Source: Pirellulales bacterium
GTDB taxonomy: Bacteria > Planctomycetota > Planctomycetia > Pirellulales > PALSA-1355
Direction of reading: 5' to 3'
Length of the DNA stretch: 64,000 nt
Assembly: GCA_963733035.1 (NCBI GenBank)
Contig: CAVTBU010000006.1
Span: 192,001-256,000, forward strand
The notes beneath the pieces were generated by a model. The model was not told where the DNA came from. It worked only from the letters and a program-made list of their open reading frames with translations, and did no database searches. The position numbers and the translations under genes are program-made. Positions 37,444 to 58,269 of the stretch are shown here, piece by piece (positions within the stretch are counted from its first letter, which is position 1; each line of letters opens with the position of its first letter).

Positions 37444-40400
37444 ATGATCGCACGGTACCGACCTGATGAATCCAACCAATCCAAACCGGGCGCCAACCAG
37501 CAGTCGGCTCAACTAGAACGCCTTTGCGCGGCGATCAGCAAGGCCGCCGAACTGTTGCCGACGTCCGGGCCGATCACGTCGTTCGCATTCTTAAACACCT
37601 TGCAGGCTCTCGAGAATTTGAGTTTTGAAGAGGGCATTGAGCGCGGAGCGACACTCTTTGGTTGCCAGCCGTGGCTGCCGGAAGAATCCTATCGGTTGTT
37701 CATGGCCAATCGTCGCATCGATGCCGAAGATCTGGCCACCGTGCTCTATGAAAGTCTTCGCGAAGAGGGAGCCGTGCCTGTGGGTGGGCTCTGTTCGCGA
37801 TATGATTTCCGCCTCGCGATGCTTAAGTATTCACTCCCCGCGGGTTCGCCGGAGGAACTGCGCTGGTACCTGGACGATAGCCAGGCACTCACCCGGTTCC
37901 GCCAGGATACTTCCGCAGAGACGAAGCGCCAGTTGCGTGACGAGACACGGCAGTGGTTGATGACCGAAGTGGCAACTGCAACGGAGAAAGTTGACCCGTC
38001 GGCCGACCCCTACGCGATGATGCTGGCCGATCTGGCACGCGAACTCAAGGCATCCGAGCTTGGCTATTGGACCAAGTCGGATGCCGAGTTGGACGCGATC
38101 TGCTTGCAGTCTTTGTGGCGCATCTGTACCGACCAAAGTGAACAGCTCGAACTTTCTCCAGTCCCCAAGCGGGCACCCCTCCGCGTGCGCGATCTGCTGT
38201 TCGACGCAACGGGCGAAGACAGCGATCTGTTGGTCCACGAGACGTTGATTCGTTTTTGTGCGGCGTTCACGGACCAGGGATTGGCCGATTGGCCCTTACC
38301 CGGCAAGGAGGAGGGCTTCTACCAGGCATTCTTGCAGCTCTATCGCGATCAGGCTGGATTACCCAACCATTGGATGCAAAGTCTCGCCGGCGAGATCGAC
38401 AGGTTAACGAGCTGTCAAATCGATCCCCTCGAATCGATACGCGAATCGTTGAGCATGTTGGGCTACTCCGAGGAGGAGTGGCCAGAAGTCATGCAAGCCA
38501 CGCTCTTGGCTTTGCCGGGTTGGGCCGGACTCATCCGGCACATGGAAGTGCGAGCGGACCGCTTTGCATTCCCCGCTCCGTCTGGCACGCTGTTGGGCTA
38601 CTTGGCCATTCGGCTGATTTTGGAGCGACAGGCACTCGCACACCTCAGCCGGAATACGCCGTTTGAAGTGTCGCAGTTAAACCAGCTGCGCGGCAAGCTG
38701 CTGCGGTCTCGGGTCAGCCCTGTGGATTCGCTCGGCTTCGGACGTGCGTTCGCAGTCTTTCAACTGGCGCAACTCTTGCGATGGTCGCCCCCCCGGCTGT
38801 CAAGATTGTCCGCCGATGATTGGAAATCGTTGGTCGAGGAGGTCGAGGCTTTTGGAAACGTCCAGCGCCGCCAACTCTTGCATCGGGCTTACGAACGACA
38901 TTTCGAATGCCAGGTGCTCGACGCGCTGTGGTCTTATGGTCAGCGTGCGACGACGCGATTGGCCGCGCCCGGTTTTCAGGCGGCGTTTTGTATCGACGCG
39001 CGCGAAGAATCGTTTCGGCGGCATATCGAGGAGGTAGGACAAAACGTCGAGACCTTTGGCGTGGCCGGCTTTTTTGGCGTGCCGATGTATTACCGGGGAG
39101 TGGCCGATGCCCATTTCGTGCCCCTGTGCCCCATCGTGATCAAGCCCGGCCATTGGGTTACAGAAGAAGTTGTTTACCCGCTGGGCGACGCGCATCGTCG
39201 TCGGAGTAACGTCCGGCGCCTGCTGGGAACCGCCGCCCACCGATTGCACATGAGTAGCCGCGGAGTTGCCCACGGCGCGGTGGTAACTGCCGGGCTGGGC
39301 GTGCTGGCGTCGGTCCCCTTGATTGCACGCGTGTTGTTTCCGCGAGCGACTGGCCGCGTTCGCAGCGTGGCCGGACGCATTGCACGGGCACCTTCGATGA
39401 CGCGATTGCGATTGCACCGTAGCGAAGCGGAGCCAGGACCCGAAAACGGTCACATCGGTTTTACGACCGACGAAATGGCGAATCTGGCCGAGCGCACTTT
39501 GCGCGAAATCGGTTTGACGTACGGCTTCGCGCGGTTGGTCGTGTTTTTTGGACACGGGTCCACATCGGTCAACAATCCGCACAAGTCGGTCTACGATTGC
39601 GGCGCTTGCACGGGAAATCCTGGCGGGCCGAACGCGCGCGCCTTGGCCGCCATGCTGAACGACGGCCACGTGCGAAACGTTTTGGCCCGACGAGGCGTGG
39701 AAATTCCTCGAGACACTTATTTCCTGGGTGGCATGCACAACACGAGTGACGACTCGGTGGCGTTCTTCGATCTGCAGGCCCTGCCTGCCTCTCACATTGG
39801 TGACTTTGAGGAATTGAAACATGTGCTCGCAGAAGCCTGCAACCGCAACGCGCACGAACGCTGCCGACGTTTCGACTCGGCTCCCTTGAGTCTGTCATTT
39901 TCGGCCGCGAAGCGACACGTTGAAGAGCGGTCGATGGATTTAGTGCAAGCCCGACCAGAATTTGGCAACGCATCCAACGCGATGTGCATCGTGGGCAGGC
40001 GACAACGCTCGCATGGACTTTTTCTCGACCGAAGGTCGTTCCTGATGTCTTATGACCCCGCCCAAGACGATGCCGAGTTCAATATACTAGAGAGAATTCT
40101 GAACGCCGTCGTACCAGTTTGCGAAGGCATCAACATGCAGTATTTTCTGTCCAGCATCGATTCGAGCGGCTGGGGATGCGGTTCAAAATTGCCGCACAAT
40201 ATCACCTCGCTATTGGGCATCATGGACGGGGCAGCCAGCGATTTGCGTTCCGGATTGCCGTGGCAGGGGGTTGAGATTCACGAACCCATGCGGCTGCTTT
40301 TCGTTGTCGAAACCACACCTGAGGCGATGCGTAAAATTATGCAGCGCAATCAGGCGATCGGGCGGATCCTGCGCAACGGATGGGCGCGGTTGGCGGTTCT

Positions 40401-40610
40401 TTCGCCCACGTCGAACAATATCGTTGTGTATACCGATGGAGAATTTCGGGCATACGAACCGTCGGCGGCGCAACTACGGAGGCCGAGTCGTCGACTGGCT
40501 GGTACCAGGGATGGCGTGACAACCTGGACATTGCCGTGATTGAGCGGCCCGCTGATCGGCAGGACGAGGCCAAGGCTTCGGAAGAATCGTCGGTGTCGAC
40601 GCAGTCCTGA
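37444..40610 (+). CDS. dabA: DUF2309/UPF0753 inorganic carbon pump subunit DabA-like, frameshift near 40480
   Basis: FCIDAREES, GHGS and DCGAC Zn ligands, HEPMRL; C-terminal WYQGWRD is in the shifted frame. Confidence 0.85.
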
Positions 40611-42133: not shown

Positions 42134-42459
42134 CGCAGTCGCGGGTCACGTGAATTCTGTTGGTTTTTGGGGCAGCCTCATTGTCTTATCTTATGCTAAA
42201 CGGGTTGGACTATGAGTAACATTTCAGAGCTCATTTGTGCGACAGATTCCAGAAATCTAGGTAGCGGCGCTCGCGGCTCTGTACCACGTGACCGAATGTC
42301 AACCGAAGCCGCACGTTTGTTTCGATCGGCGAACAAGTGGGATACAATCGGAGGCGCGCGGCTGTGGGTGACGTGCGATTTGGACCCCCGCTTCGTGTCG
42401 TATTATAGCGCGATGAGCCGACAACAATATCCTTGCCGTCGTTTTTGCGGAGCCCGGTC

Positions 42460-43883
42460 GTGGACAATTATTCGGACTATGATGGCCTGGGTTTGGCCGA
42501 ACTTGTCGCAAAAAAGCAAGTGTCGCCGACCGAGCTGGTCGAGGCCGCAATCGCTTGCATCGAACGGCACAACCCGATCTTGAACGCGGTTGTCTACCAG
42601 GGCTTTGATGACGCTCGCGCTCGCGCCAAAAGTGAACTACCGGACGGCCCGTTCAAGGGCGTGCCGTTCTTGATCAAGGACCTGGCCATGCCAGTCGCTG
42701 GCTGGCCGCGCACGTCAGGAAGCCGGTTCGCTGCCAGAATTGTGGACAACGAGGACGGCGGACTCACCGCGCGCTACCGCGCCGCCGGCGTCATCCCGAT
42801 TGGTAAGACCAATACACCGGAATTTGGCATCACGGGCACCACCGAGAGTGCTTATCTTGGACCATGTCGCAACCCCTGGAACTCGCGACATATTGCTGGC
42901 GGCTCGTCTGGCGGATCGGCTGCGGCGGTTGCAGCGGGCATGGTGCCCATGGCGCACGCGTCGGATGGACTGGGCTCAATCCGAATTCCAGCGGCGTGCT
43001 GCGGCCTCGTGGGCCTGAAGGTCACCCGCGACCGCAACCCGAATCTTCCCGATGGCTACGACTATGTGGTCGGGCAGGTGGTCGATCATGTGGTGACCCG
43101 GACCGTACGCGACTCGGCCGCCATGCTGGACGCCACCGGCTATCCCGAACCCGGCTCTCCATACGCGAACCCACCAAAGTCGGGACCGTATCTACGGGAG
43201 GTCGGCCGCAGTCCTGGCCGGTTGCGGATCGCCTGGTCTGCTAAGACTCCCAGCGGCCGCCCGATCAGCGATGAGGTGCAAGCGGCGCTGTGCGCACCGC
43301 TGAGCTCTTGAAACATCTCGGCCACGACGTGATCGAGCGTGGCCTCGGCATCGACTACCGAGCACTCTATGCCGCGCGCGCTCCGGTCGGCGCGGCCAAC
43401 TTTGCCGCCGGCATGGCTCGTCTTATCGAACAGATCGGTCGCGAACCCGAGCCCGACGACCTTGAGCCACTCACCTGGCAGGTACTAGAGGCCGGACGCA
43501 ATGTGACCGGCGTCGAAGCTCTTCGTGCCATGCATGAAATACGAATGCTCAATCGCAAGACGCTGTTGGCGTTCGAGGACATTGACGTTTATTTATCGCC
43601 TGTGATGGGAGAGCCGCCGCCGGAGATCGGCCACATCGATCCGGTTAACTTGGAGCCGCGCGAACTGTACCGTCGCCAGAACCGCGTTTTCCCATTTACC
43701 CCGACGTTCAATTTCTCCGGCCAGCCTTCGCTGTCGTTGCCGCTGCAGATGTCGGCCAGCAATTTGCCCATCGGAATGATGTTTACCGCCAAATATGCCG
43801 ACGAAGCCACCCTATTCCGGCTGGCCAGCCAGTTGGAAAAGGAAGCACCGTGGGCGGCCCGCCGTCCGCCCATTTGGGGCTAG
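42460..43883 (+). CDS. Amidase signature family protein, frameshift near 43290
   Basis: GVPFLIKD, GGSSGGSAAAV, DGLGSIRIP. Confidence 0.9.
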
Positions 43884-44312: not shown

Positions 44313-44879
44313 ATGCGCGACCATGCCCAACAGGCCGTGACCGAGCTCTTGGTCTTGCGAGCGCAAGCGGGCCATGCCGACGCGCTATCGTTGCTGGTGC
44401 GCGACTGGCACGATCGGTTGGTCCGCCACGCACAGCGACTAACTGGCCACGAGGAGGCGGGTCGTGACGTGGTGCAAGAAGCCTGGATCGACGTGTCACG
44501 CGGTTTATGGGCTCTCGACGATCCCGCTCGCTTTGGCGCATGGGTGTTTCGGATTGTCACCAGGCGATCGGCGTTGTGGATTCGTCAGGAGCAGCGTCGT
44601 CGTCGACGCGAAAAGTCGACCCACGCCGCCAGTCCGACCGCATCGTCGCCGGGCGATCATCGCGAGGCCGGGCGGCGAGCCGAGGCAATCGACGATATGC
44701 ACCACGCCTTGAAAAGACTATCTACCGAAGACCAAGCTCTTCTTGAACTCCGCTATTTGCACGAATTCTCAATTGATGAAGTCGCAATCGCACTTGACAT
44801 TCCATCGGGCACGGCCAAGTCACGACTGTTTCATGCCCGGCAACGCTTAAAAGAGGAACTCCAGAGGGTACCCAAATGA
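44313..44879 (+). CDS. ECF RNA polymerase sigma factor
   Basis: DVVQEAW, FGAW, EVAIALDIPSGTAKSRL. Confidence 0.9.
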   Translation: MRDHAQQAVTELLVLRAQAGHADALSLLVRDWHDRLVRHAQRLTGHEEAGRDVVQEAWIDVSRGLWALDDPARFGAWVFRIVTRRSALWIRQEQRRRRREKSTHAASPTASSPGDHREAGRRAEAIDDMHHALKRLSTEDQALLELRYLHEFSIDEVAIALDIPSGTAKSRLFHARQRLKEELQRVPK

Positions 44880-45244
44880 CACACTCAGAAGACAAACTCG
44901 TTGAGGCGCTCAAGCGGCTCGATTTGGAAAGCGGCGATGATGTGGAGACCCTTTCGGGCGTGGTCGCTGACATGGTGCGCAATCAGTCGCGGTATCTTGT
45001 CGCACTGCCGTGGATCTTCACGTTCGTGTTCCTGGGAGTGGCTGTTTATTCGGCCGTGCGGTTTTTCGCCACCCAAGAGCCTAAAGAGTGGGTGCTTTAT
45101 GCCACGTTGTTTCTAACGGCCATGATCGTTGTGGCAATCTTTAAGTTGTGGTTCTATCTGGTGTGGGTCCGCAATTCGATACTCCGCGAGATCAAGCGTA
45201 GCGAACTTCGCCTGCTCGTCGCCCGATCGTCGAAGGCAGAGTAA
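44876..45244 (+). CDS. Membrane putative anti-sigma factor (DUF6768-like)
   Basis: ATGA overlap with the sigma gene; two TM segments; KLW...RNSILREIKR.EL. Confidence 0.7.
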   Translation: MTHSEDKLVEALKRLDLESGDDVETLSGVVADMVRNQSRYLVALPWIFTFVFLGVAVYSAVRFFATQEPKEWVLYATLFLTAMIVVAIFKLWFYLVWVRNSILREIKRSELRLLVARSSKAE

Positions 45245-45407: not shown

Positions 45408-45657
45408 TGTCTCAGGTGGGACTCGAACCCCTAGCGCAAACCCCGGGGAACACCGCCAAATCGCAACTCGCGATGCACAAAACGGCGCAGTTGCCGCACG
45501 GGGGCAGTTGGACGCGGAAAGGGATGCCCAGGTCAGCCCTTTGAGCCAGGCCAAAATCGACGTCGCCCTCGTGGTCGTCATTCAAGCCTGGCCGCACCTG
45601 CCCGAGGCGATTCGGAAGGGGATCCTGGCGCTGGTGCGGGTGGCGGACGGTCCGTGA
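45408..45657 (+). repeat. Left copy of ~240-bp direct repeat beginning with a tRNA T-arm-like fragment
   Basis: GGACTCGAACCCC...GCACAAAACGGCGC...AAATCGACGTCG.CCTCGTGGTCGTCAT.CA.GCCTGGCCGCACCTGCCC.AGGCGAT; matches 61362-61610. Confidence 0.85.
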
Positions 45658-45821
45658 TCTTTCTGCTTCGAATACGTCATTCATGTCGCGGATCCGTTCG
45701 TGCATGATCATCCTTGCGATGTATGTGTGACGCTGGACTGTGACCACATACTAAATAGCGAGTCGCAATTGCGTCGTGAAGCAAACCGACTGCTTTCAGC
45801 AAAGTAACTCACTTTCGGCGA

Positions 45822-46017
45822 TTGAAAGCAGGCCAGGCGTCGTGCTACCTTTCTGTTACTCAACGATGCACTCGTTGGGCCGGTCATCCTGAGTGACCGG
45901 GGTATCCGAAGAGCTCGACAGCACGTCCTCGTCCAAGTAGGCACCTGACAACGAGTATCCAGAGAGCCCGTAATCGGCATGCGCTGCAACAGCGCGCCGA
46001 CTACGGGCTCTTTTTTT
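45822..46017 (+). promoter_or_regulatory. Conserved leader: putative promoter, structured RNA and intrinsic terminator (copy 1)
   Basis: TTGAAA-18-TACCTT with extended TG; core nearly identical to 57892-58088(-); ends GAGCCCG...CGGGCTC-T7. Confidence 0.75.
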
Positions 46018-46048
46018 GTGGGGTTGTCTATCAGGGAGATTCAACGCC

Positions 46049-47413
46049 ATGTATCGCGACCGTCAATACTTGGGAACTAATGAACTAAGGAACAGCACCG
46101 CGCAGAGTCGAGCCCACCTGTTTGCGCAAACGCTGCTCGGCAACCAGAGTCCTGCTCCAGTGGCCGGTTCCATGCAATCACATCACGCAAGCGACGCTCT
46201 CGAGTTTGTGGCGAGCATCTCAGGCCGAGCACTCGACAGGTTGCGCCAAGTTCGAGCCATCTCGGCACAGGCTCAACGAGATCGAGAGTTGCTCGAATGG
46301 CTGGCCTTGATTTCGGACGGGCACGACCGCAAGTTGCGGGAAATTCAGCTCCTGGAAGTGGAACGGCAACTAGTCGAGCAGCGCTCTGAGCACCGCAGCG
46401 ACTTGCTTGACCTGCAAGAGGCGGAATGGGACCCCGCCAAACATCCTCGTCGCGGCTCGGCGCCTAATCCAGGGTGGTTCGCGACAACAGGAGGGACGGG
46501 GACGGGTGCCGGTTCGTCAACCCCTGGTCGCGCAACCGGTGGCGAATCTAGCAGTGGAAGCGAGGCTTCTACCGTTTCTAAACCTTCGGCCACTGCGCCA
46601 AAGAGCACCAAGCTTGATACACCATCAGAGCCGACCAAGCCTTCTCGCGATGGGGTACCGGCGGTACAAGCCGTCTACTCAGGGCGGAGACAGATAGCAG
46701 CGCAACAAGCGGCGTGGCCGTCACCGGTCGGGCATCACTGGGTGCCGATCGGCGTGATTCAGCATCCCGACATCCGTCCATTCTTGTCAGATGAGGCCGC
46801 CCAATACGCAGCCGGAGCATACTCTGGCCCCACCAGTCCACACCACGGAAACAGGACATATGGCGACGTTGCCCATCCCAAGTACAGTGCGGAAGTACGG
46901 AAGGAACTGAGGGCGTTCATTGACGCGCGCGGCATCAAGAAAATGACGGCAAAGGATATGGCAGAGTTTACAGACTTGATTAAGGGCGGACGCGGCGCAA
47001 ACGGAAAGCCAAATAAGGTGATTGCTTCTTTTAACAAGGCCATCAAGGGAATCGTCCCCAAGGGCACGAAGCCTCTCTCATCAATGGACGAGATCATGGC
47101 TGCAGGAGCCAAGCATATGAGGCACTCCCGCTTCAAGCTGTTGGCCGCAGGCGCGGTCATCTCCGGTGTTCTTGGCGAGGTAATCAACCAGCAAGTGAAT
47201 GTCTTGGATGTGGCCGCGAACAGCGGTCATTATCGCCGCGCGCTAAAGGCCCTTGAAGAGGGCGACCTAAGTAAAGCGCATAGCCTACTCATCGGCGATG
47301 GCAATAGCTTGTATCACGAGATACTCGGCCAGGTCGGTGCTCACGCTGCCCTGAATTTCAAGAAGGCTATGGAACGCGTATTCGAGATGGCAAGAAATCA
47401 AGACTATAGGTGA
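46049..47413 (+). CDS. Polymorphic toxin-like protein with HNH/AHH-like C-terminal nuclease
   Basis: GGGAG SD; LFAQxxLG / RDRELLEW / EWDPAKHPR N-terminus; low-complexity linker; GHHWVP...HH...HPKY C-terminus. Confidence 0.65.
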   Translation: MYRDRQYLGTNELRNSTAQSRAHLFAQTLLGNQSPAPVAGSMQSHHASDALEFVASISGRALDRLRQVRAISAQAQRDRELLEWLALISDGHDRKLREIQLLEVERQLVEQRSEHRSDLLDLQEAEWDPAKHPRRGSAPNPGWFATTGGTGTGAGSSTPGRATGGESSSGSEASTVSKPSATAPKSTKLDTPSEPTKPSRDGVPAVQAVYSGRRQIAAQQAAWPSPVGHHWVPIGVIQHPDIRPFLSDEAAQYAAGAYSGPTSPHHGNRTYGDVAHPKYSAEVRKELRAFIDARGIKKMTAKDMAEFTDLIKGGRGANGKPNKVIASFNKAIKGIVPKGTKPLSSMDEIMAAGAKHMRHSRFKLLAAGAVISGVLGEVINQQVNVLDVAANSGHYRRALKALEEGDLSKAHSLLIGDGNSLYHEILGQVGAHAALNFKKAMERVFEMARNQDYR

Positions 47414-49455: not shown

Positions 49456-49527
49456 GGGTCGGTAGCTGAGACGGTTTAGCGGTGGCCTGAAAAGCCGCAG
49501 ACGAGGATTCGAGCGCCTCCCGACCCA
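49456..49527 (+). tRNA. tRNA-Phe(GAA), irregular T-loop
   Basis: Anticodon arm GTGGC-CTGAAAA-GCCGC. Confidence 0.7.
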
Positions 49528-49563
49528 CTGCGCTCTGCGTGCGCGCTGACGGAGAACACTCAC

Positions 49564-49636
49564 GGCTCGTTCGTCTATCGGTTCAGGATACTGCCCTTTC
49601 AAGGCGGAGAGGTGGGTTCGATTCCCACACGAGCTA
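49564..49636 (+). tRNA. tRNA-Glu(TTC)
   Basis: CTGCC-CTTTCAA-GGCGG; GGTTCGATTCC. Confidence 0.9.
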
Positions 49637-49654
49637 CTGAAGCAACAAAATCAT

Positions 49655-49726
49655 CGGGCTGAAGAGGGACGGCGCCTCGCGTGCCTTGGGAGCACGAGAC
49701 AGTCGGTTCGACTCCGACCTGCCCGA
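49655..49726 (+). tRNA. tRNA-Pro(TGG)
   Basis: CGTGC-CTTGGGA-GCACG. Confidence 0.8.
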
Positions 49727-49736
49727 CTTGCGTGAC

Positions 49737-49808
49737 GGTAGTTGAGGGCTGGTTGCCCAAACCCGGCTGATAACCAGGTGGCGCTGAGTTCGATTCTCAG
49801 AACTACCA
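49737..49808 (+). tRNA. tRNA-Ile(GAT)
   Basis: Loop CTGATAA; GGTAGTT/AACTACC acceptor. Confidence 0.75.
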
Positions 49809-49887
49809 CTGAACGAGAGATCACAAGAAGGAGAAACGACGTTGGCAACTCGCATGCGACTCAAACGCATACGCCCACTCCACATTC

Positions 49888-49959
49888 GGGGTCGTGGCGT
49901 AACGGCAGCGCTTCCGCCTTTTAAGCGGGAAGGTAAGGGTTCGACTCCCTTCGGCCCCA
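49888..49959 (+). tRNA. tRNA-Lys(TTT)
   Basis: TCCGC-CTTTTAA-GCGGG. Confidence 0.88.
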
Positions 49960-49987
49960 CTGCGTTGGCTTCGGCCAGCGATCGCGG

Positions 49988-50060
49988 CGGCGCGTAGCTC
50001 AGTGGTGAGAGCAGGTCTCTTATAAGGACCAGGTCGAGGGTTCGATTCCCTCCGCGCCCA
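49988..50060 (+). tRNA. tRNA-Ile(TAT), rare anticodon
   Basis: Canonical TAGCTCAGTGG D-arm; GGTCT-CTTATAA-GGACC. Confidence 0.88.
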
Positions 50061-50092
50061 CTGTGCGCGCAGAAACGAGGAACAACACGAAC

Positions 50093-50165
50093 GGGATCAA
50101 GGTGCTAGCGGCAGCATGCCTGGCTCTTAACCAGGTCGGTGAGGGTTCAAGTCCCTCTGATCCCA
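50093..50165 (+). tRNA. tRNA-Lys(CTT)
   Basis: CCTGG-CTCTTAA-CCAGG. Confidence 0.88.
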
Positions 50166-50168
50166 CTG

Positions 50169-50264
50169 GAAACAGGCGAGAGGCACGAGGCCACAGGCTA
50201 GAGGGCGACCTTGAACCTCTACTGCTGACCTCTGGTCTCTCGCCTCAGGCCTCTGGCCTGTTTC
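50169..50264 (+). repeat. Heptamer-repeat palindromic hairpin (REP-like)
   Basis: GAAACAGGC (nnnAGGC)x3 ... (GCCTnnn)xn GCCTGTTTC. Confidence 0.7.
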
Positions 50265-50294
50265 GATCTTTGACAATTCGACCAGCGATTCGAC

Positions 50295-50361
50295 GCGCCC
50301 ATGATGTAGCGGTAGCCTGCTGCCTTGCCATGGCGTGCGGGTTCAACTCCCGCTGGGCGCT
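50295..50361 (+). tRNA. tRNA-Gly(GCC), shortened (variable region deleted)
   Basis: GCGCCCA/TGGGCGC acceptor, loop TTGCCAT, only ~67 nt. Confidence 0.65.
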
Positions 50362-50368
50362 TCAATTT

Positions 50369-50442
50369 CAGGGTGTGGGATAGCCTGGTAGTCCGCCTGC
50401 GTCGGGAGCAGGAGAGCGTCGGTTCAATTCCGACCACCCTGA
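50369..50442 (+). tRNA. tRNA-Pro(CGG)
   Basis: CCTGC-GTCGGGA-GCAGG. Confidence 0.88.
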
Positions 50443-50480
50443 CTTTTTGAGAACGCTCTGACCGGTACAATGAGCGAATC

Positions 50481-50798
50481 ATGAATTGGCTTACGCCGTG
50501 GACTCCGATTGTCGAAAGCGATCGCGCGGAAATGCTGACTACCGAACTTCGTCGCGAAGTTGGAGTCGGCCACGTGCTGTTCGGCATTCCGGTAAAACCA
50601 ATTGCAATTCGCCAAGATTGCGACGACGTGCTCTTCGAGCTTCTTGATGGCTCGGGCCGATTCGCCGTCACTCACTTGACGTACGCTCAGCATCCCGAGC
50701 CAGATTCGCAATGGCCTGCAACTCGTCTCTGTGACGATTTGACTCAATTCGAGCGGAGCATCATGCACGTCGATCATTCGACCGCGACCGGCTTATAG
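50481..50798 (+). CDS. Small hypothetical protein inserted in the tRNA array
   Basis: 105-aa ORF filling the gap between two tRNA-Pro genes; EL.RE...GH.L...RQDCDDVLF...VTHLTY. Confidence 0.7.
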   Translation: MNWLTPWTPIVESDRAEMLTTELRREVGVGHVLFGIPVKPIAIRQDCDDVLFELLDGSGRFAVTHLTYAQHPEPDSQWPATRLCDDLTQFERSIMHVDHSTATGL

Positions 50799-50815
50799 CG
50801 ATCGACTCCAGCTCG

Positions 50816-50889
50816 GAGGGTGTAGCGAAGCCTGGCATCGCGCAAGCTCGGGGAGCTTGAGATCGCAGGTTCAAATCCTGCCACCCTGA
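50816..50889 (+). tRNA. tRNA-Pro(GGG), C33
   Basis: CAAGC-TCGGGGA-GCTTG. Confidence 0.8.
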
Positions 50890-50908
50890 CTCGAACGTCG
50901 TCGATTGT

Positions 50909-51457
50909 TCAGCGCTTCCAAATCGTTACGTCGCTGCTGATCGCGATCAATAGCGTTCGGCCAGTGTACGAAAAGCCAAACCCGCGAAGCTCACGCTCAA
51001 TGGCTAGTTTCCAGAATCGTGAGGCAGGTGGATAGATGCTCTCGTACTTGCCAAGAAGCAAAAGACTTGTGTCCGGCCAATCGATGGACAAGGCTTCGAC
51101 GCCCCATCCGTCATCGGTCTGAGTCGGGAGGCCACCACCGACAAGTCCACAGACGCGAATCTCCCTTCCATCAAGTGGACCAAATCCGATGGCAGTCATG
51201 GCGTCTTTGCCGAACCACGATTCTTGATCTGATTCGTCACGATCTCGAGCGACTTTTTCGCCGGTGCGGCAATCGATGATTCCACGCCCTTGAGACGACA
51301 GTACCAGTAGCAGTTCAGAGTCGTCCGCAAAACCAATCTCAGTAAGTCCGCCAATTGCGACGGACGCGACGAACGACCATGGCTCTGGCGGAGCGGTGAC
51401 CGCAGCACGGCGAATTTTGTCTCGCACAGGTTCGAGGTGGTCCATAAGGTTTGCCAT
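50909..51457 (-). CDS. Hypothetical protein antisense within the tRNA array
   Basis: 182-aa ORF that fills the inter-tRNA gap exactly. Confidence 0.7.
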   Translation of the reverse strand: MANLMDHLEPVRDKIRRAAVTAPPEPWSFVASVAIGGLTEIGFADDSELLLVLSSQGRGIIDCRTGEKVARDRDESDQESWFGKDAMTAIGFGPLDGREIRVCGLVGGGLPTQTDDGWGVEALSIDWPDTSLLLLGKYESIYPPASRFWKLAIERELRGFGFSYTGRTLLIAISSDVTIWKR

Positions 51458-51500
51458 GGGTTCATAGGATGGCTCGCCAGTATACCGGATTGATCAATAT

Positions 51501-51575
51501 TGCGGTGGGGCCTGTGTTGGTACAGGCAGGCGCCTGTTAAGCGCCCCTTCGCAGGTTCGATTCCTGCCGCCGCAG
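51501..51575 (+). tRNA. tRNA-Asn(GTT)
   Basis: GGCGC-CTGTTAA-GCGCC. Confidence 0.88.
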
Positions 51576-51587
51576 CTTTCTAGGGAC

Positions 51588-51671
51588 GGAAGGGCAAGCC
51601 AATGGGCGATGGCAGCTGTTTCGAAAACAGTCGAGCGATGAGCCTTGAGGGTTCGACTCCCTCTCCTTCCG
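51588..51671 (+). tRNA. tRNA-Ser(CGA)
   Basis: GCTGT-TTCGAAA-ACAGT; long variable arm. Confidence 0.88.
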
Positions 51672-51675
51672 CTTC

Positions 51676-51747
51676 GTGCTCTTGGCCGATCGGCAGAGGC
51701 GTCAGCCTTCCAAGCTGAACAGGCGGGTTCGATTCCCGCAGAGCACT
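51676..51747 (+). tRNA. tRNA-Gly(TCC)
   Basis: TCAGC-CTTCCAA-GCTGA. Confidence 0.88.
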
Positions 51748-51760
51748 TTCGATCAATCAT

Positions 51761-51831
51761 TCGGGGATCGGCTAATGGTCGGCCGCCTGGCTTTGAACCA
51801 GGCTATGGTAGTTCGAATCTACCTCCCCGAG
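51761..51831 (+). tRNA. tRNA-Gln(TTG)
   Basis: CCTGG-CTTTGAA-CCAGG. Confidence 0.88.
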
Positions 51832-51840
51832 CTTGGAAGA

Positions 51841-51887
51841 CTACCGCCCTGCGCTCGATTGCCGCCCGGCAATCGTGCTCGGTTGCT
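51841..51887 (+). repeat. 47-nt hairpin mini-element (copy 1) inside a tRNA remnant
   Basis: CTACCGCCCTGCGCTCG-ATTGCC-GCCC-GGCAAT-CGTGCTCGGTTGCT, followed by a T-arm/acceptor 3' half. Confidence 0.8.
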
Positions 51888-51925
51888 GGTTTGATTCCTT
51901 CTCCCCGAACTCGGTGACAAAACAT

Positions 51926-52000
51926 TCCGGGGTAGCTGCTGCTGGTAGTGGCGCCTGGCTCTGAACCAGGAGGTCGTTGGTTCGATTCCAACTCCCGGAG
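51926..52000 (+). tRNA. tRNA-Gln(CTG)
   Basis: CCTGG-CTCTGAA-CCAGG. Confidence 0.88.
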
Positions 52001-52020
52001 CTGTTTCGAACGACACGATC

Positions 52021-52106
52021 GGAAGTCATCCGGCCGGATGAGGAGCCTGTCTTGAAAACAGGTGGCGGCCTCGCGCCGCTTGTGGGTTCGAGTCCCACGG
52101 CTTCCG
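52021..52106 (+). tRNA. tRNA-Ser(TGA)
   Basis: CCTGT-CTTGAAA-ACAGG; long variable arm. Confidence 0.88.
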
Positions 52107-52134
52107 CTCAACAGGTCGATTCGTTCAGCAACAC

Positions 52135-52205
52135 AGTCCCGTGGTCCAACGGCAAGACTCCTGCGTCACATCCAGGAAACGATGGTTCAACTCCATCCGG
52201 GACTA
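52135..52205 (+). tRNA. tRNA-Val(CAC)
   Basis: Loop GTCACAT; one stem mismatch. Confidence 0.75.
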
Positions 52206-52211
52206 CTCGAT

Positions 52212-52285
52212 GTCCAGGTACGCCAATTGGCAGAGCGGCACGGCTTAAACCCGCGCGGATGCCGGTTCGACTCCGGCCTTGGGCA
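52212..52285 (+). tRNA. tRNA-Leu(TAA), short variable loop
   Basis: CACGG-CTTAAAC-CCGCG. Confidence 0.8.
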
Positions 52286-52295
52286 CTGTCAACGC

Positions 52296-52368
52296 GGCTC
52301 GGTCGGCAACGGCAGACCACCTTGGCTTAGAACCAAGGATGCTGTGGGTTCGAATCCCACCTGAGCTA
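52296..52368 (+). tRNA. tRNA-Leu(TAG), short variable loop
   Basis: CTTGG-CTTAGAA-CCAAG. Confidence 0.85.
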
Positions 52369-52382
52369 TTTAGTAGAGACTC

Positions 52383-52457
52383 GTCCTCGTGGAGTAGTCT
52401 GGAGTGCTCGCCTGCCTGTCACGCAGGAGATCACGGGTTCAAATCCCGTCGGGGACG
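52383..52457 (+). tRNA. tRNA-Asp(GTC)
   Basis: CCTGC-CTGTCAC-GCAGG. Confidence 0.92.
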
Positions 52458-52539
52458 CCTTTTGATTGTTGTACGCGAAATCGTCTGTGGCGCGGAGTGT
52501 TCCGCAACGCCTCGACGAACTGCAACGCAACGTAAATCT

Positions 52540-52613
52540 GGCACGGTACGCCAATCGGCTGAGCGGCGAAGCTCAAACCTTCGTGTCTGCGGGTTCGACT
52601 CCCGCCTGTGCCA
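52540..52613 (+). tRNA. tRNA-Leu(CAA), short variable loop
   Basis: CGAAG-CTCAAAC-CTTCG. Confidence 0.85.
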
Positions 52614-52619
52614 CTGTTC

Positions 52620-52706
52620 GGGTTGTGCTCCTCGTGGCGGCCTGTAAAGCCGTTGTCACAAAAGAAGCGAGGTGGGCGACGAATGGTTCGATTCCTTCAC
52701 AACCCA
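52620..52706 (+). tRNA. tRNA-Tyr(GTA)-like, lacking a D-arm, long variable region
   Basis: GGGTTGT/ACAACCC acceptor; GCGGC-CTGTAAA-GCCGT. Confidence 0.65.
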
Positions 52707-52711
52707 ATTGA

Positions 52712-52784
52712 GGCCCGCTCGTCTATCGGTTGAGGACGCCAGCCTCTCAAGCTGGAAGGACGGGTTCGATTCCCGTGCGGGTCA
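52712..52784 (+). tRNA. tRNA-Glu(CTC)
   Basis: CCAGC-CTCTCAA-GCTGG. Confidence 0.9.
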
Positions 52785-52790
52785 CTGTAT

Positions 52791-52873
52791 GGCCAAGTGG
52801 TGTAACTGGTAAACACGCGACGCTCAGAACGTCGTGCCCTTGCGGCGTGGGAGTTCGAGTCTCCCCTTGGTCA
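52791..52873 (+). tRNA. tRNA-Leu(CAG), long variable arm
   Basis: CGACG-CTCAGAA-CGTCG. Confidence 0.9.
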
Positions 52874-52890
52874 CTGAAATATTGAATTGA

Positions 52891-52959
52891 CGCAGGTGAG
52901 CCAGTGCTCAGCCGAGTTTCATAAGCTCAGCCCGTCGGGTGCGACACCCGAACCTGCAA
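52891..52959 (+). tRNA. tRNA-Met(CAT), initiator-like C1:A72, degenerate
   Basis: Loop TTCATAA, short D-arm, T-loop TGCGACA. Confidence 0.6.
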
Positions 52960-52964
52960 CTTAC

Positions 52965-53040
52965 GGCCGGGTACGCAAACTGGCAAAGCGACGAGGTCGA
53001 GAGCCTCGTGATTTTGTGAGTTCGACTCTCACTCCGGTCA
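52965..53040 (+). tRNA. tRNA-Leu(GAG), C33, short variable loop
   Basis: CGAGG-TCGAGAG-CCTCG. Confidence 0.8.
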
Positions 53041-53069
53041 CTTGAATGAGATTGCGGCCAAAACTGATC

Positions 53070-53507
53070 CTACAGTGCGAGCACGCGGCACACCTCTCGA
53101 ATCCAGATCTCACCGATCCATTCCAGGTCGGCATACGGAGAGATGCGTGAAGCGGTCCAGCCGCTTTCGTCGAGTACTCGCATCATGCCGGGTGCCGCCA
53201 AGGCGTTCGTTGTGTGGATGATCACTGGGCATGTCGGCGGTTTCGTCGCGAGAAAGTCGGCCACATCGCGTCCGGTGCCGGGGTCACGCATGACACCGCC
53301 GATCAATCGGTTGGGTCCGAGATCGTGATCGAGGCAGATGAGAATCGGTTCGCCGCAGTGAACCTTCAGCCAGACGATCATATCTGGTGCATTGTCGAAC
53401 ACAATTGATTCATGGCCTGGGCAGCGACTTGCGAGGCACGGCAACATTGCGGCGATCCGTTCCGGCTCGTCGTCAAGAATTGCGACTACTTTTGATTCGC
53501 TTGCCAT
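53070..53507 (-). CDS. Cyclic-phosphate-processing receiver-like domain protein
   Basis: ILDD...ICLDHDLG...GTGRDVA...VIIHTTN pattern. Confidence 0.75.
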   Translation of the reverse strand: MASESKVVAILDDEPERIAAMLPCLASRCPGHESIVFDNAPDMIVWLKVHCGEPILICLDHDLGPNRLIGGVMRDPGTGRDVADFLATKPPTCPVIIHTTNALAAPGMMRVLDESGWTASRISPYADLEWIGEIWIREVCRVLAL

Positions 53508-53533
53508 GTCAACAAGTCTAACAAATCACATTC

Positions 53534-53606
53534 GATCCCGTGGTCCAACGGCTACGACGCCTGGATGACACCCAGGAGGCAGATGGTTCAACTCCATCCG
53601 GGATCA
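53534..53606 (+). tRNA. tRNA-Val(GAC)
   Basis: CCTGG-ATGACAC-CCAGG. Confidence 0.85.
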
Positions 53607-53616
53607 TTTGCGAATC

Positions 53617-53688
53617 GGTCTGTAGGTGTGTTCGGCGGCACACCTCCTCGGTAAGGAGGAAGGCCGGGTTCGACTCCCGGACGGACCT
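53617..53688 (+). tRNA. tRNA-Thr(GGT), C33
   Basis: CCTCC-TCGGTAA-GGAGG. Confidence 0.82.
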
Positions 53689-53757
53689 TCAACCGAGCAC
53701 GCGACATAGGCGTGCCGCGAGCGCAGGGCGAAAGGAATCGAGATGGATAGAAGTGAG

Positions 53758-53795
53758 GGGCTGCTGGTCCAACGGCAAGACGCTTGGATTGAAGT
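53758..53795 (+). pseudogene. 5' half of a tRNA-Ala-like gene, 3' half replaced by a hairpin
   Basis: GGGCTGCTGGTCCAACGGCAAGACGCTTGG resembles the start of the next tRNA-Ala; no T-arm follows. Confidence 0.6.
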
Positions 53796-53837
53796 CAGCG
53801 TCGATGGCAACGGCGGATCGACGCTCGTCAAATACAT

Positions 53838-53908
53838 GGGCTGCTCGTCCAACGGGAAGACGCCTGGCTTGCAACCAGGAAATCGGGGTTCGACTCCCCG
53901 GCGGTCCA
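53838..53908 (+). tRNA. tRNA-Ala(TGC)
   Basis: G3:U70; CCTGG-CTTGCAA-CCAGG. Confidence 0.9.
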
Positions 53909-53919
53909 CTGAATAAAAC

Positions 53920-53990
53920 GGGCTCATGGTCCAAAGGGAAGACATCAGGCTGGCAGTCTGAAGATCCGGGTTCAATTCCCGGTGAGTCCA
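53920..53990 (+). tRNA. tRNA-Ala(GGC)
   Basis: G3:U70; TCAGG-CTGGCAG-TCTGA. Confidence 0.88.
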
Positions 53991-54008
53991 CTGATACGGG
54001 AAACCTTT

Positions 54009-54311
54009 TTACATCGGAATACCGGCATCAATCGCAGCTTGTCGATTGTGGCCGGGTTCGAGAAGTGTCGTTCCTTGATAGACCTCGACGTTCGCGTCCA
54101 TGAGATCAGAAAGAGGCAGCTCAACATAGACCTGGGTATTACGGTCGGTCTCGACAACGTTGAACCACGGTTGTGCAACGAAACTGCGCACCTGGATTTC
54201 CAGTGACTCGCCGGGCAACAGCGTGAAGTCGTGAGGCCACGGCTCGACCCAAATGACGCGCAATTGCGCTTCGTCGTTGGTCACGCCGATCTTTGCGAAG
54301 AACTCACTCAT
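54009..54311 (-). CDS. Small hypothetical (immunity-like) protein
   Basis: 100-aa ORF in an inter-tRNA gap; VIWVEPW..DFTLLPGE. Confidence 0.6.
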   Translation of the reverse strand: MSEFFAKIGVTNDEAQLRVIWVEPWPHDFTLLPGESLEIQVRSFVAQPWFNVVETDRNTQVYVELPLSDLMDANVEVYQGTTLLEPGHNRQAAIDAGIPM

Positions 54312-54443
54312 TACCCTAGCGTATTGCGGAAGCGTACGACAAACAAGTGATTCGGAAGGTAGATGCTATGGCAGCGGCGAGGGACTGCGTTAGGCTCCGA
54401 GTCACGAGGGATTGTTTTATCCGTTGTTTTGAGGAGCTCAATC

Positions 54444-55622
54444 ATGGCCACTCGACCGCAAGACTGCAGCACAACGAAGCCAGTACTGTTCCTGGGTCTC
54501 GAATTAGGGCAGCGAACCTGGAAGTTGGGGTTCACCGTGGGTTTGGGTCAGAAGCCGCGGCGACGTGAGATCGCTGCCGGTTGCATTCAGGCACTGAAAC
54601 GAGAGATCAATGAGAGTAAGCAACGTTTTGGTCTGCCTGCGGATGTGGAGGTGATTAGCTGTTACGAGGCAGGCCGTGATGGGTTTTGGCTGCATCGTTG
54701 GCTGGTGTCTGAGAACGTCACAAACTTGGTGGTTGACTCGTCTAGCATTCAAGTGCCGCGGCGGCAGCGACGGGCCAAGACCGATCGTCTGGATTTGGAA
54801 CAATTGTTGACCATGTTGGTGCGCTGGCATCAGGGCGAGTCGAAAGTCTGGAGCGTGGTGACGGTGCCGAGTGAAGCGGAAGAGGACGTTCGGCATTTGC
54901 ATCGCGAGTTGGAAACGCTGCGGGCGGAACAGACCAGCCACATCAATCGAATCAAGGGGCTGTTGATCGGTTGCGGCGTGGTGATTGATGTGAACCGCTG
55001 GCTACCGAAACGGCTCAAAGCAATACGGCTTTGGAATGGCTCGCCGTTGACCAGCGATTTGCGGCAACGGGTATTGCGGGAGTTCGAGCGGATGCAGGTG
55101 GTCAATCGACAGGTTCGCGAGCTGGAAAAGGAGCGTGCCGCCCGGATTCGCAGCAACGAAACTGACAAGAGCGTCGCCCAGGTGCGGACGTTGTTGGGCG
55201 TGAAGGGCATCGGCGTCAACAGCGCGTGGATGTACGTGCAGGAGGTGTTTGGCTGGCGAAAGATCAAGAATCGTCGTCAATTGGGTGCGCTCGTGGGGCT
55301 GACCGGCAGTCCGTATAGCAGCGGCAACTTGGAGCGCGATCAGGGAATTACAAAGGCTGGAAACCGCCGGATGCGAACAATGGCTGTCGAAATCGCCTGG
55401 GGATGGTTGGCATTCCAACCCGGCAGCGATCTGAGCCGTTGGTATCACGATCGATTCGCGGCCGGAAACAAGCGTCTTCGTCGCATTGGAATTGTGGCGC
55501 TGGCAAGAAAGCTGTTGGTGGAGTTGTGGAAATACCTGGAGACCGGCGTGCCGCCTTGCAACGCGGAGCTGACCGAGTGGGAGGACAAGATTCACTACAC
55601 CCCTTCCCTTACGCCGGCGTAG
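54444..55622 (+). CDS. IS110 family transposase/recombinase
   Basis: LGLELG, CYEAG, KTDRLD, GIG, SSG and ITKAGN motifs; GAGGAG SD. Confidence 0.92.
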   Translation: MATRPQDCSTTKPVLFLGLELGQRTWKLGFTVGLGQKPRRREIAAGCIQALKREINESKQRFGLPADVEVISCYEAGRDGFWLHRWLVSENVTNLVVDSSSIQVPRRQRRAKTDRLDLEQLLTMLVRWHQGESKVWSVVTVPSEAEEDVRHLHRELETLRAEQTSHINRIKGLLIGCGVVIDVNRWLPKRLKAIRLWNGSPLTSDLRQRVLREFERMQVVNRQVRELEKERAARIRSNETDKSVAQVRTLLGVKGIGVNSAWMYVQEVFGWRKIKNRRQLGALVGLTGSPYSSGNLERDQGITKAGNRRMRTMAVEIAWGWLAFQPGSDLSRWYHDRFAAGNKRLRRIGIVALARKLLVELWKYLETGVPPCNAELTEWEDKIHYTPSLTPA

Positions 55623-55629
55623 CGATTGG

Positions 55630-55860
55630 ATCGGTGCGAGTATGGAGCGTCTGAACGACTGACGTCGAGACTGGAAAGCGACCGAGTATCCGGCGGGTAC
55701 GAGTTAGGCTCACCGAAAGGTAGATGGGATCGCTTTCATTATGGCTTCCCGAGAGCGTCCAGGACGCATAGGGCATAGGGTGATCGGCGATGATGCCGGC
55801 ACGGATAGAAGCTAGTCGTTGGCCTCGGCCACAACGATCAGCGGAAGCCGCCAGTCATGA
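55630..55860 (+). ncRNA. Candidate bridge/seek RNA of the IS110 element
   Basis: Contains AAGGTAG (target left flank + core) and ATAGAAG (element right end + core); boundaries approximate. Confidence 0.6.
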
Positions 55861-56218
55861 CGTTGAACCGACAGAAGAAGTGTTTTGAGGAATGGCAGGA
55901 CAAATGAATGTGCATCCCAGCACGGCTCCAGCCGCGGCGTGCGGCCAGAGCCGTCACGGAATCATTCACCCGCCCTGACCTGGCTATCCCTTGTTGGGTT
56001 GCTCTTCAGCAGAGCTCAACTCCGTTTCACCAGGCAGGCGAAAGTATATCACGACTCAACGTTGGATGAGGAGCTTGACAGGTGCGCATCCATAGAAGCC
56101 GGATACGGTTGGCCGGGCCGCTCTGCTAAGGCGGTTCCCGCTCGTCGGGATGAGGGTTCGAATCGGGCACCGCGGCAAAGCCGTGGTCTACCTTCCGCTG
56201 GTGAAAAGGCTCCTCCAA

Positions 56219-56581
56219 TCACTTCGCCTGTTCCACGTCGATCGCGGCCCGCAGCTCCTCAACATTCGCGAATTGTTGAAGTGGAAGATCGAACGAGTAG
56301 TCGAGATCAATGATTCGAAGGGGGATGCCGAGATGCCTTTGAACGATCAGCGCGGCACTTAGGGCGGCGTCTGTCATCCCCGATATCGAGATCGCGTCGC
56401 GTTTCCGGCTGAGGTCGACCATCGTGAAGTCGTCGCCCTCAGAATAGTCCGCTTCAATTGGGATTCCGATGGACGTATTATATCGAATCTCACCGAATCC
56501 CCTGACCGACTTGAAAATGTCTTGCAACGCCTCGACGGTAAATAGCCGTTTGTCGTCGCTGAACAGCAGAAGACTTTGCAT
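56219..56581 (-). CDS. Putative cognate immunity protein
   Basis: 120-aa acidic ORF starting 16 nt after the toxin stop. Confidence 0.65.
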   Translation of the reverse strand: MQSLLLFSDDKRLFTVEALQDIFKSVRGFGEIRYNTSIGIPIEADYSEGDDFTMVDLSRKRDAISISGMTDAALSAALIVQRHLGIPLRIIDLDYSFDLPLQQFANVEELRAAIDVEQAK

Positions 56582-56596
56582 AGCAATTACGTACTC

Positions 56597-57867: not shown

Positions 57868-57891
57868 GACGCTCCTCTTCATGGGTGCGAG

Positions 57892-58088
57892 AAAAAGAGC
57901 CCGCACCCGGTGCGCGCTTCGCAAGCGCGCACCGATTACGGGCTCTTTGGATACTCGTTGTCAGGGGCCTACTGGCACGAGGACGTGCAGTCGAGCTCTT
58001 CGGATACCCCGGTCACTCATGGTGACCTTGCCCAGCGATCAGCTCGCCGATTGATTCGGAACCTAGCACAAAGGGCGGCCTAGTTTCT
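57892..58088 (-). promoter_or_regulatory. Conserved leader: putative promoter, structured RNA and intrinsic terminator (copy 2)
   Basis: TAGAAA-18-TAGGTT with extended TG; shares TGAGTGACCGGGGTATCCGAAGAGCTCGAC...CCTGACAACGAGTATCC...GAGCCCGTAATCGG with copy 1. Confidence 0.75.
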
Positions 58089-58179
58089 AGTCGAAGATTT
58101 AATGGAGTGATTGGTCTGAGCAAATACGTCGCGCGAACCGTGCGGCGTGGATCTGTTTCCTTTTCTAATGTCTCAGCTC

Positions 58180-58269
58180 GCCTCGATGGTGAAACGGACG
58201 ATCACTCCTTGCTTCTAACAAGGCCCGGTATTTCTGGGAGACGCGGGGGTTCGAATCCTGGTCGGGGCA
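58180..58269 (+). tRNA. tRNA-Arg(TCT), degenerate (insertion in variable region, weak T-stem)
   Basis: GCCTCGA/TCGGGGC acceptor; CCTTG-CTTCTAA-CAAGG. Confidence 0.6.

Follow-up and report, generated by a model that had tools for sequence, protein, structure and literature searches.

A 64,000-nucleotide (nt) stretch of the genome of a Pirellulales bacterium (assembly GCA_963733035.1, contig CAVTBU010000006.1, positions 192,001–256,000; the whole stretch is referred to as the window) contains two copies of an RNA leader ahead of toxin-like genes, copy A at 45857–46017 on the forward strand and copy B at 58050–57892 on the reverse strand. The presence of two copies had been noticed in a sequence-only reading of this DNA and was confirmed here. 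In the pairwise alignment of the copies, which spans 292 columns, the mean column identity was 83%; leaders A and B were 86% identical. This alignment contained the 30-nt block TGAGTGACCGGGGTATCCGAAGAGCTCGAC, previously reported as identical in both copies, together with the hairpin GGTCA..TGACC, whose loops differ, and the terminator GAGCCCGTA...T(A/G)CGGGCTC-Tn, whose upper stem is changed on both sides. The internal near-repeat described at the same time (GTATCCGAAGAGCTCG and GTATCCAGAGAGCCCG) was also found, with 13 of 16 positions alike and the second unit located on the 5′ arm of the terminator. The 18-mer of this second unit occurred twice in the window at ≤3 mismatches, compared to 0.03 occurrences expected from 100 shuffles. 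Folding of copies A and B gave z-scores of −4.80 and −6.12, respectively, and none of 200 shuffled sequences folded as well.

In copy A, a putative promoter (45822–45851, forward strand) consists of a −35 box TTGAAA (45822–45827), an 18-nt spacer with the element AGGCCA, and a −10 box TACCTT (45846–45851) that follows TGc. It was assigned on the basis of conservation: the layout TTGAAA/TAGAAA-N17-18-TAnnnT, often with TG before the −10 box, is kept ahead of the leader in related genomes. The promoter is followed by the hairpins P0 (45859–45879) and P1 (45880–45900), the latter being GGTCA..TGACC. Both were seen in the minimum free energy (MFE) folds, and both belong only to the long form of the leader (family f1), P0 being missing from the minimal forms. 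In an alignment of 30 long-form copies (A2), compensatory changes were observed at 5 of 8 pairs of P0 and 3 of 7 pairs of P1. P1 is partly deleted in a third copy of the same genome.

The core of the leader begins with repeat unit 1 (45901–45917), which is almost invariant in 89 sequences and consists of the head GGUAUC (45901–45906), a 4-nt linker, and the tail GAGCUCG (45911–45917). In the hairpin P2 (45913–45956), GCUCG of the unit-1 tail pairs with CGAGU at the start of unit 2 and closes a variable insert, 34 nt long in this copy. Repeat unit 2 (45954–45970) has the head (A)GUAUC, a 4-nt linker, and the tail GAGCCCG (45964–45970), which is also the 5′ arm of the intrinsic terminator (45961–46017). 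The terminator was assigned from the folds and has the lower stem AGAGAGCCCGUA/UACGGGCUCU, a G+C-rich upper stem, and a U7 run (46011–46017) that ends 31 nt before the ATG at 46049. With its promoter, copy B occupies 57892–58089 on the reverse strand and shows the same order: TAGAAA (58089–58084) and TAGGTT (58065–58060), P0, P1 (58027–58011), unit 1 (58008–57992), P2, unit 2 (57954–57939), and the terminator U-run (57896–57892), whose end lies 24 nt ahead of the ATG at 57867. Across the family, the core can be written as two direct repeats GGUAUC-N4-5-GAGCYYG, where unit 2 takes the form GUAUC, 4–5 nt ending in A, and GAGCCCG. The P2 loop is 6–35 nt long and is conserved neither in length nor in sequence. 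In the minimal forms, the predicted transcript start lies 10–20 nt before unit 1, and long and minimal forms differ by ~50 nt in the spacing of the −10 box and unit 1. Within the source genome (G000; 10 contigs, 92% completeness), the combination GAGCCCG...CGGGCTCTTT was found at the three toxin leaders only, which argues that the sequence of the terminator is under constraint, and not just its shape.

The gene behind copy A encodes P0001 (46049–47413, forward strand; RBS, ribosome-binding site, GGGAG at 46034–46038), a 454-residue protein with an N-terminal domain shared with other leader-headed genes, a Gly-rich linker, and a C-terminal domain of no known family. Copy B is followed by P0002 (57151–57867, reverse strand; 238 residues), which has the same N-terminal domain and Gly-rich linker but ends early, and directly after it by an open reading frame (ORF) for a Tox-REase-2 domain (56597–57127, reverse strand; PF15646, E 1.4e-06). 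The toxin frame behind copy B is split, owing either to breakage of the gene or to an indel in the assembly. Similar splits affect an amidase gene of the window (42433–43311 and 43290–43883) and the third toxin gene of this genome (L003 1645–2580 and 2492–3118). With G000 assembled into 10 contigs and 92% complete, such splits could equally well be assembly indels or real pseudogenes.

Among the 30 long-form copies, 24 stand before an intact ORF with the common N-terminal domain, four before a seemingly disrupted one, one at a contig end, and one before another protein. The domain carries the motifs AWLFAQxLLG, RELLEW, and KHPR ahead of the Gly-rich linker and matched no Pfam or PHROG family. 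The 35 relatives of P0002 align with it over the N-terminal 34%–91% only, and two of them carry PF14428. Known toxin domains were recognized at the C-termini of 8 of 28 scanned proteins, namely WHH (two), a DddA-like deaminase (three), AHH (one), and Tox-REase-2 (two). The earlier assignment of the downstream genes as toxins therefore stands, as they have the constant N-terminal module and variable toxin ends of polymorphic toxins; judging by this domain organization, the leader-headed genes with the common module are polymorphic toxins. The N-terminal domains encoded behind copies A and B are only 35% identical, in contrast to the 86% identity of the leaders, so that the RNA is the more constrained part. 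In most loci, 15–50 nt separate the U-run from the start codon on the same strand, with an RBS present. This gap leaves no room for a promoter, and expression of the gene would thus need readthrough of the terminator.

The third long copy in G000 lies outside the window, ahead of a third toxin paralogue, and of 33 genomes from the family, 19 carried the leader according to blastn. On A2, P0, P1, P2, and the terminator paired in 92.5% of cells, compared to 33%–48% in slid controls; compensatory changes were found at 18 of 46 pairs, and 0 of 500 shuffles equalled this. Of 151 genomes sampled from the order Pirellulales, 40 were matched by the long-form covariance model (R1), the weaker matches keeping the core only. 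A second alignment (A6) comprised 89 realigned cores, from which three reverse-strand terminator matches were left out. Here, 95.2% of cells paired (36%–49% in slid controls), with compensatory changes at 16 of 23 pairs. Both P2 and the terminator covaried strongly among these homologues, the covarying upper stem of the terminator having been described earlier from two copies. In P2, columns 20/60 read UA in 44 and CG in 36 of 88 sequences, and columns 21/59 read CG in 51 and UA in 32; in the terminator, 11 of 14 counted pairs were compensatory.

The core covariance model (R2) matched 66 of the 151 genomes, covering 44 of 95 genera, often with 2–10 copies in each. Elsewhere in the phylum, the 150 genomes sampled gave one doubtful match of 35.8 bits with a single repeat and no gene behind it. 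Two further weak matches (L133 and L124) were discounted, as inspection showed that the repeats are absent. Related loci come from Pirellulales, Lacipirellulaceae, and Thermoguttaceae and include the cultured Botrimarina colliarenosi Pla108 and Aeoliella straminimaris ICT_H6.2. The six R2 matches in G000 are the three toxin leaders, one leader before a gene for a 191-residue protein, and two before genes for 256-residue acidic proteins; a seventh, degenerate copy was identified by eye. The two leaders of the 256-residue genes (G000:C5:1083218–1083302, forward strand, and C5:2648221–2648305, reverse strand) are identical, as are at least 90 nt upstream of them, and the genes themselves are nearly identical. 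These twin leaders, ~1.56 Mb apart, represent a recent inverted duplication.

A search of the whole window with Rfam 15 at gathering thresholds returned 25 tRNAs as the sole matches, and at E ≤ 10 the interval 45600–46200 returned only three chance microRNA matches of 14–15 bits. Neither search matched the leader, as had been suspected when it could not be assigned to a class by eye. On this comparative evidence, the leader is a real, conserved, structured RNA element that is listed in no Rfam family. No published description of the motif was found in the literature searched, the scope of which did not extend to the supplementary tables of large motif surveys. Nothing on Planctomycetes was listed, and no work joining Pirellulales with antitermination was returned; a word search of PMC11109978 and PMC8632094 found no mention of planctomycetes, Pirellula, or Gemmata.

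The leader is also associated with genes other than toxins. By eye, the genes behind the minimal forms encode the 191-residue protein, which shows weak likeness to the ClpP/crotonase-like phrog_1128, ~100-residue proteins with one membrane helix, ~150-residue proteins, acidic low-complexity proteins, and phrog_29592-like proteins. For the 191-residue family, the association was also approached from the gene side by searching 185,579 species genomes and taking the best 80 loci. Of these, 72 have a same-strand R2 match upstream of the gene, and two of the other eight have almost no upstream DNA. In G000, the leader heads a same-strand run composed of the 191-residue gene, a trypsin-like peptidase gene, a 286-residue ORF, and genes for ParB-like, GNAT-containing, TerS, TerL, and lambda-type portal proteins. 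After the portal gene come a leaderless ORF of 60 residues (L121 16809–16991), a degenerate leader with its own terminator, and then phrog_29592-like (scaffold-like), head-decoration, and major-capsid genes. This phage-derived cluster occupies 8344–19851 of locus L121 (G000:C6:443000–462900). Of 30 loci in other genomes, most keep this arrangement of the 60-residue ORF and the leader, and in many genomes an R2 match lies 8–18 kb upstream on the same strand. The chromosomal neighbours upstream of the cluster are MoCF_biosynth, Exo_endo_phos, and HD_4 genes. These neighbours recur in a second genus (L122), where the leader, the 191-residue gene, and the peptidase gene are kept and head genes were not found in the 13 kb scanned downstream. 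A gene for a BRCT-MerR-TPR protein (L121 1671–3065) is located ~5 kb upstream of the leader-headed cluster.

The ATG of the 60-residue ORF in G000 begins 7 nt after a −10 box, and in most of the 30 loci the same promoter type as that of the leader lies ~7 nt before this ATG. Its presence ahead of a leaderless gene speaks for the leader promoter as a real one. For the 14-mer TTGAAATCGGGCCA, which spans the −35 box and the conserved spacer element, the genome holds 111 loose matches, and of the 80 listed at least 12 are exact; examples in G000 are C6:451339, C6:459771, C7:162384, and C7:164180. It looks like a generic, common strong promoter type of the lineage that lies outside the switch, and its genome-wide occurrence rules out the promoter spacer box as a regulon-specific operator.

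An alternative fold of the core follows from the complementarity between the head of each repeat and the tail of the other (GGUAUC with GAGCYY, including a bulged A and a G-U pair). Pairing of head 2 with tail 1 is P2 itself, and head 1, when paired with tail 2, would engage the terminator's 5′ arm in a helix of long range. In order, the resulting rod would comprise a helix of 6 bp, a purine-rich internal loop of 4×4 to 5×5 nt formed by the two linkers (4–5 nt each), a helix of 7 bp, and the P2 loop, with one bulged A in either helix. In alignment A6, 97.1% of cells paired in the rod and 95.3% in the head 1:tail 2 helix. Positions 17 and 73 of A6 alternate between A and G only, facing an invariant U, and two sequences (L091 and L098) show U9→C together with A73→G. 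When the 3′ arm of the copy A terminator was blocked, the MFE structure was exactly the rod (−53.6 kcal/mol). The terminator was present in the MFE structure of 86 of 89 full-length homologues; when the transcripts were cut before the 3′ arm, the rod helix was part of the MFE structure in 54 of 89 cores. Such a quasi-symmetric hairpin, as predicted from the sequence, would be able to sequester the 5′ arm of the terminator.

The leader shows the layout of an attenuator, with an upstream promoter (by conservation), a G+C-rich hairpin followed by a U-run, and a close ORF on the same strand. We propose, with about even confidence, that it is a factor-dependent terminator/antiterminator switch, RAT/LicT-like in shape, which couples the toxins to the phage-derived cluster. 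The leader would be the 5′ part of the toxin mRNA and a member of an order-wide, multi-copy family of cis-acting transcription attenuators. A sigma-70-like promoter would start a transcript that contains the two-repeat core. By default, the very strong terminator would form, yielding a short RNA of ~100–160 nt and leaving the toxin gene off. The rod that holds the 5′ arm of the terminator would be stabilized by a factor acting in trans, most likely a protein that binds the RNA as a dimer, and RNA polymerase would then read into the gene. Termination at the U-run, competition of the rod with the terminator, and a decision by the factor are thus all predicted steps. With the same leader on capsid and packaging operons, the toxins would be switched on together with the cluster; the leader probably acts as a shared on/off gate for toxin and phage-derived genes. 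The earlier naming of phage infection as the signal was a guess and is not carried over as such, but a link to phage did emerge, as the leader is common to the toxins and a resident phage-derived gene cluster, which we read as co-regulation. It is conceivable, albeit rather doubtful, that a small protein encoded in the cluster reads the antiterminator RNA throughout a dispersed Pirellulales regulon and thereby co-induces the domesticated capsid and packaging cluster and the scattered polymorphic toxins.

Two proteins are candidates for the antitermination factor. The first is the small 60-residue protein of the cluster, which is single-copy in 67 of the 151 genomes of the order. Protein and motif occur together in 50 genomes, the protein without the motif in 17, the motif without the protein in 16, and neither in 68; these overlaps, like those given below for the second candidate, are not independent evidence, as the genomes are related. 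A hidden Markov model (HMM) of 30 members gave nothing better than E 0.1 in G017, G027, G001, G097, and G101, and on this result the protein was rejected as an obligatory factor. A structure model predicted a helix and a β-hairpin (pLDDT, predicted local distance difference test score, 83.8), with no match in the PDB at E ≤ 0.001. Its identification as DUF2292/YezD was rejected, because the ORF had no Pfam match at E ≤ 1 and PF10055 found nothing in the genome; a literature search for DUF2292/YezD gave nothing relevant. The second candidate is a protein with a helix-turn-helix (HTH) and a zinc ribbon (CxxC...CxxC), which in a subset of genomes is encoded by the first gene behind the leader, before the 191-residue gene (e.g., L185 861–1430). 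Of the 151 genomes, 92 encode a member of this family, as do 57 of the 66 with the motif. In G000, its gene lies elsewhere and without a leader (C5:1733199; L214 1501–1932), and an HtrA/trypsin-like protease gene follows it.

Several results speak against the proposed switch. In the full leader of copy A, the terminator fold reached −72.6 kcal/mol and the enforced rod −56.6 kcal/mol, a gap of 16 kcal/mol. When 60 nt of upstream sequence were added to the cut transcripts, the rod helix remained in the MFE structure of 25 of 89 sequences, where for the minimal forms the added sequence includes untranscribed DNA. The head 1:tail 2 helix is near-invariant, with changes on both sides in two sequences at columns 9/73 and in one at columns 10/72, possibly a single event, and a shorter rival pairing of GGU in unit 1 with AUC in unit 2 suits the alignment equally well. 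The putative promoter, assigned by conservation, was not called by a consensus promoter scan, and the terminator was not called by a simple terminator scan, its stem being bulged. The U-run is interrupted in the two copies before the 256-residue genes, and at one of the four toxin paralogues in G000 the leader is absent although the promoter box is present. As for the factor, 16 of the 66 genomes with the motif, among them G017 with its 8 leader copies, gave no match to the 60-residue protein, and a search for CAT_RBD (PF03123) gave 0 matches in G000, the control being matched in 4 of 14 known genomes.

The same structure could be read by a small molecule, the rod then being an aptamer for a metabolite or a signalling nucleotide whose ligand stabilizes the helix that holds the 5′ arm. 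A closing helix that overlaps a terminator arm, together with conserved bases in an internal loop, is indeed the architecture of a terminator-type riboswitch, and the gene for HD_4, a RelA/SpoT-type hydrolase, directly upstream of one leader copy in two genera would suit an alarmone. Against this stand the missing Rfam match and the genes themselves: toxins, the capsid cluster, small membrane proteins, and acidic proteins have no metabolic function in common that would point to a ligand. As the minimal core is a single bulged hairpin of pseudo-two-fold symmetry that suits a dimeric protein at least equally well, we consider a riboswitch unlikely. Quite unlikely, too, is that the ~100–160-nt product is itself functional as a stand-alone small RNA, either a two-site protein sponge or a ToxI-like antitoxin of type III, with only incidental readthrough. 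Its own promoter, strong terminator, two repeated sites, and multiple copies would fit, and the order of repeats, terminator, and toxin gene recalls toxI-toxN. However, the leader keeps a constant orientation 15–50 nt before a start codon with an RBS and without space for another promoter, it also precedes non-toxin genes, and the recognized toxin ends are DNases or deaminases and not RNases of the ToxN/AbiQ type.

An unregulated element that keeps dangerous genes low and blocks readthrough from upstream, in which the repeats serve folding or RNA stability, would account for a terminator far more stable than any alternative fold and for the lack of a known factor or ligand. We consider such a constitutive attenuator or insulator improbable, because it leaves unexplained the near-invariance of ~25 nt outside the terminator over 44 genera, the head/tail complementarity, and the invariant lower-stem sequence, when terminators normally drift. 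The sequence-only reading had suggested a further arrangement, in which unit 1 competes with unit 2 for the 3′ arm CGGGCUC. This pairing is feasible: the unit-1 tail (GAGCUCG or GAGCCUG), being similar to that of unit 2, can form 7 bp, including one G-U, with CGGGCUC in nearly all sequences. It would nevertheless break the covarying P2, unit 2 is much nearer to the 3′ arm, and the G+C-rich helix would still adjoin the U-run and so be no antiterminator. We regard this version as very improbable; the alignment favours the 5′ arm as the target of competition, through pairing of the unit-1 head GGUAUC with GAGCCC of the unit-2 tail. Two other candidates were rejected: leader-peptide attenuation, because there is no conserved ORF in the leader and the lengths of the P2 insert are not multiples of three, and a PyrR-like UCCAGAGAG in unit 2, because that linker varies across the wider family.

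Of the known systems, the proposed protein-dependent switch is closest in shape and logic to the RAT hairpins of BglG, SacY, and LicT in Bacillus and Escherichia coli, which are weak alone and allow readthrough once stabilized by a dimeric protein. Both are imperfect, quasi-two-fold-symmetric leader hairpins that overlap the 5′ arm of a terminator. The Pirellulales leader, however, shows no sequence likeness to RAT, its rod is broken by a variable hairpin insert, and it would control toxin and phage-derived genes instead of sugar-utilization genes; with no CAT_RBD protein and no Rfam match, it is not a member of that family. In the late control of lambda-type phages, pR′ is followed by qut and tR′, through which Q acts, and stx toxin genes lie behind tR′; N/nut antitermination operates as well. 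Shared with this system are a strong terminator that stands, behind a promoter and short leader, before capsid genes, the placing of toxin genes under the same gate, and a small protein of the cluster as a candidate factor. It differs in that it is a covarying RNA structure and not a DNA site for Q binding with a pause signal, and that the gate stands before many dispersed genes and not one operon. In addition, the spacing between the −10 box and unit 1 varies by ~50 nt and the spacer box is generic in the genome, unlike a Q/qut arrangement, and the P2 loop varies in length and sequence, whereas boxB of N/nut has a conserved loop. The stretch GCUCUUU of the 3′ arm resembles boxA but reads GGGCUUUUU in many copies.

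Type III toxin–antitoxin loci consist of toxI repeats (a tandem array of 36-nt units), a terminator, and toxN. A repeat-bearing RNA followed by a terminator and a toxin gene is common to both, but the leader has two mutually pairing 17-nt units and stands before polymorphic DNase or deaminase toxins as well as non-toxin genes, and Pfam detected no ToxN/AbiQ-type toxin among the scanned toxin ends. ANTAR leaders have two hexaloop hairpins, in contrast to the unconserved P2 loops of 6–35 nt; ANTAR (PF03861) had no match in the genome, although the control genomes were silent too. As in the leader, the HMP-PP (thiS) class has a very small sensing domain with conserved nucleotides that overlap the terminator stem, according to PMC6478431. 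Unlike this class, the leader matches no Rfam riboswitch model, and its gene context names no ligand. Regarding toxins linked to capsid genes, the portion seen of PMC3482391 lists MuF capsid-linked toxins and does not list planctomycetes for that route.

Most of a tRNA gene array is flanked by toxin leaders A and B, which are in inverted orientation. The array comprises 30 tRNA genes, all on the forward strand, at 49456–59822 according to ARAGORN (25 are called by Rfam), and is interrupted by an IS110-family transposase gene (54363–55622), a cREC_REC ORF (53070–53507, reverse strand), and the copy-B toxin locus. Immediately ahead of copy A, a gene for an extracytoplasmic function (ECF) sigma factor and, after it, an overlapping gene for a DUF6768 membrane protein occupy 44313–45244; no sign of linkage to the leader was noticed in other genomes. 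Farther upstream (37444–40539) lies the gene for a DabA-type inorganic carbon transporter subunit (PF10070, E 3.8e-237), seemingly an ordinary chromosomal gene.

Gene control in Planctomycetota is little known, and the leader, ~90 nt in length and naturally occurring in dozens of variants, is a defined RNA element. It joins three fields that are usually separate, namely intrinsic-terminator switches, polymorphic toxins deployed in conflict between bacteria, and a phage-derived gene cluster that is conserved. Should the factor be identified, the two would form a new antiterminator/RNA pair and explain how numerous toxin genes are held silent until a common signal. Should the dispersed-regulon reading be true, toxin production would be coupled to particle production or lysis, as a chromosomal, multi-copy counterpart of the Q-dependent control of Shiga toxin, and the particles might deliver the toxins, as proposed for MuF-linked toxins.

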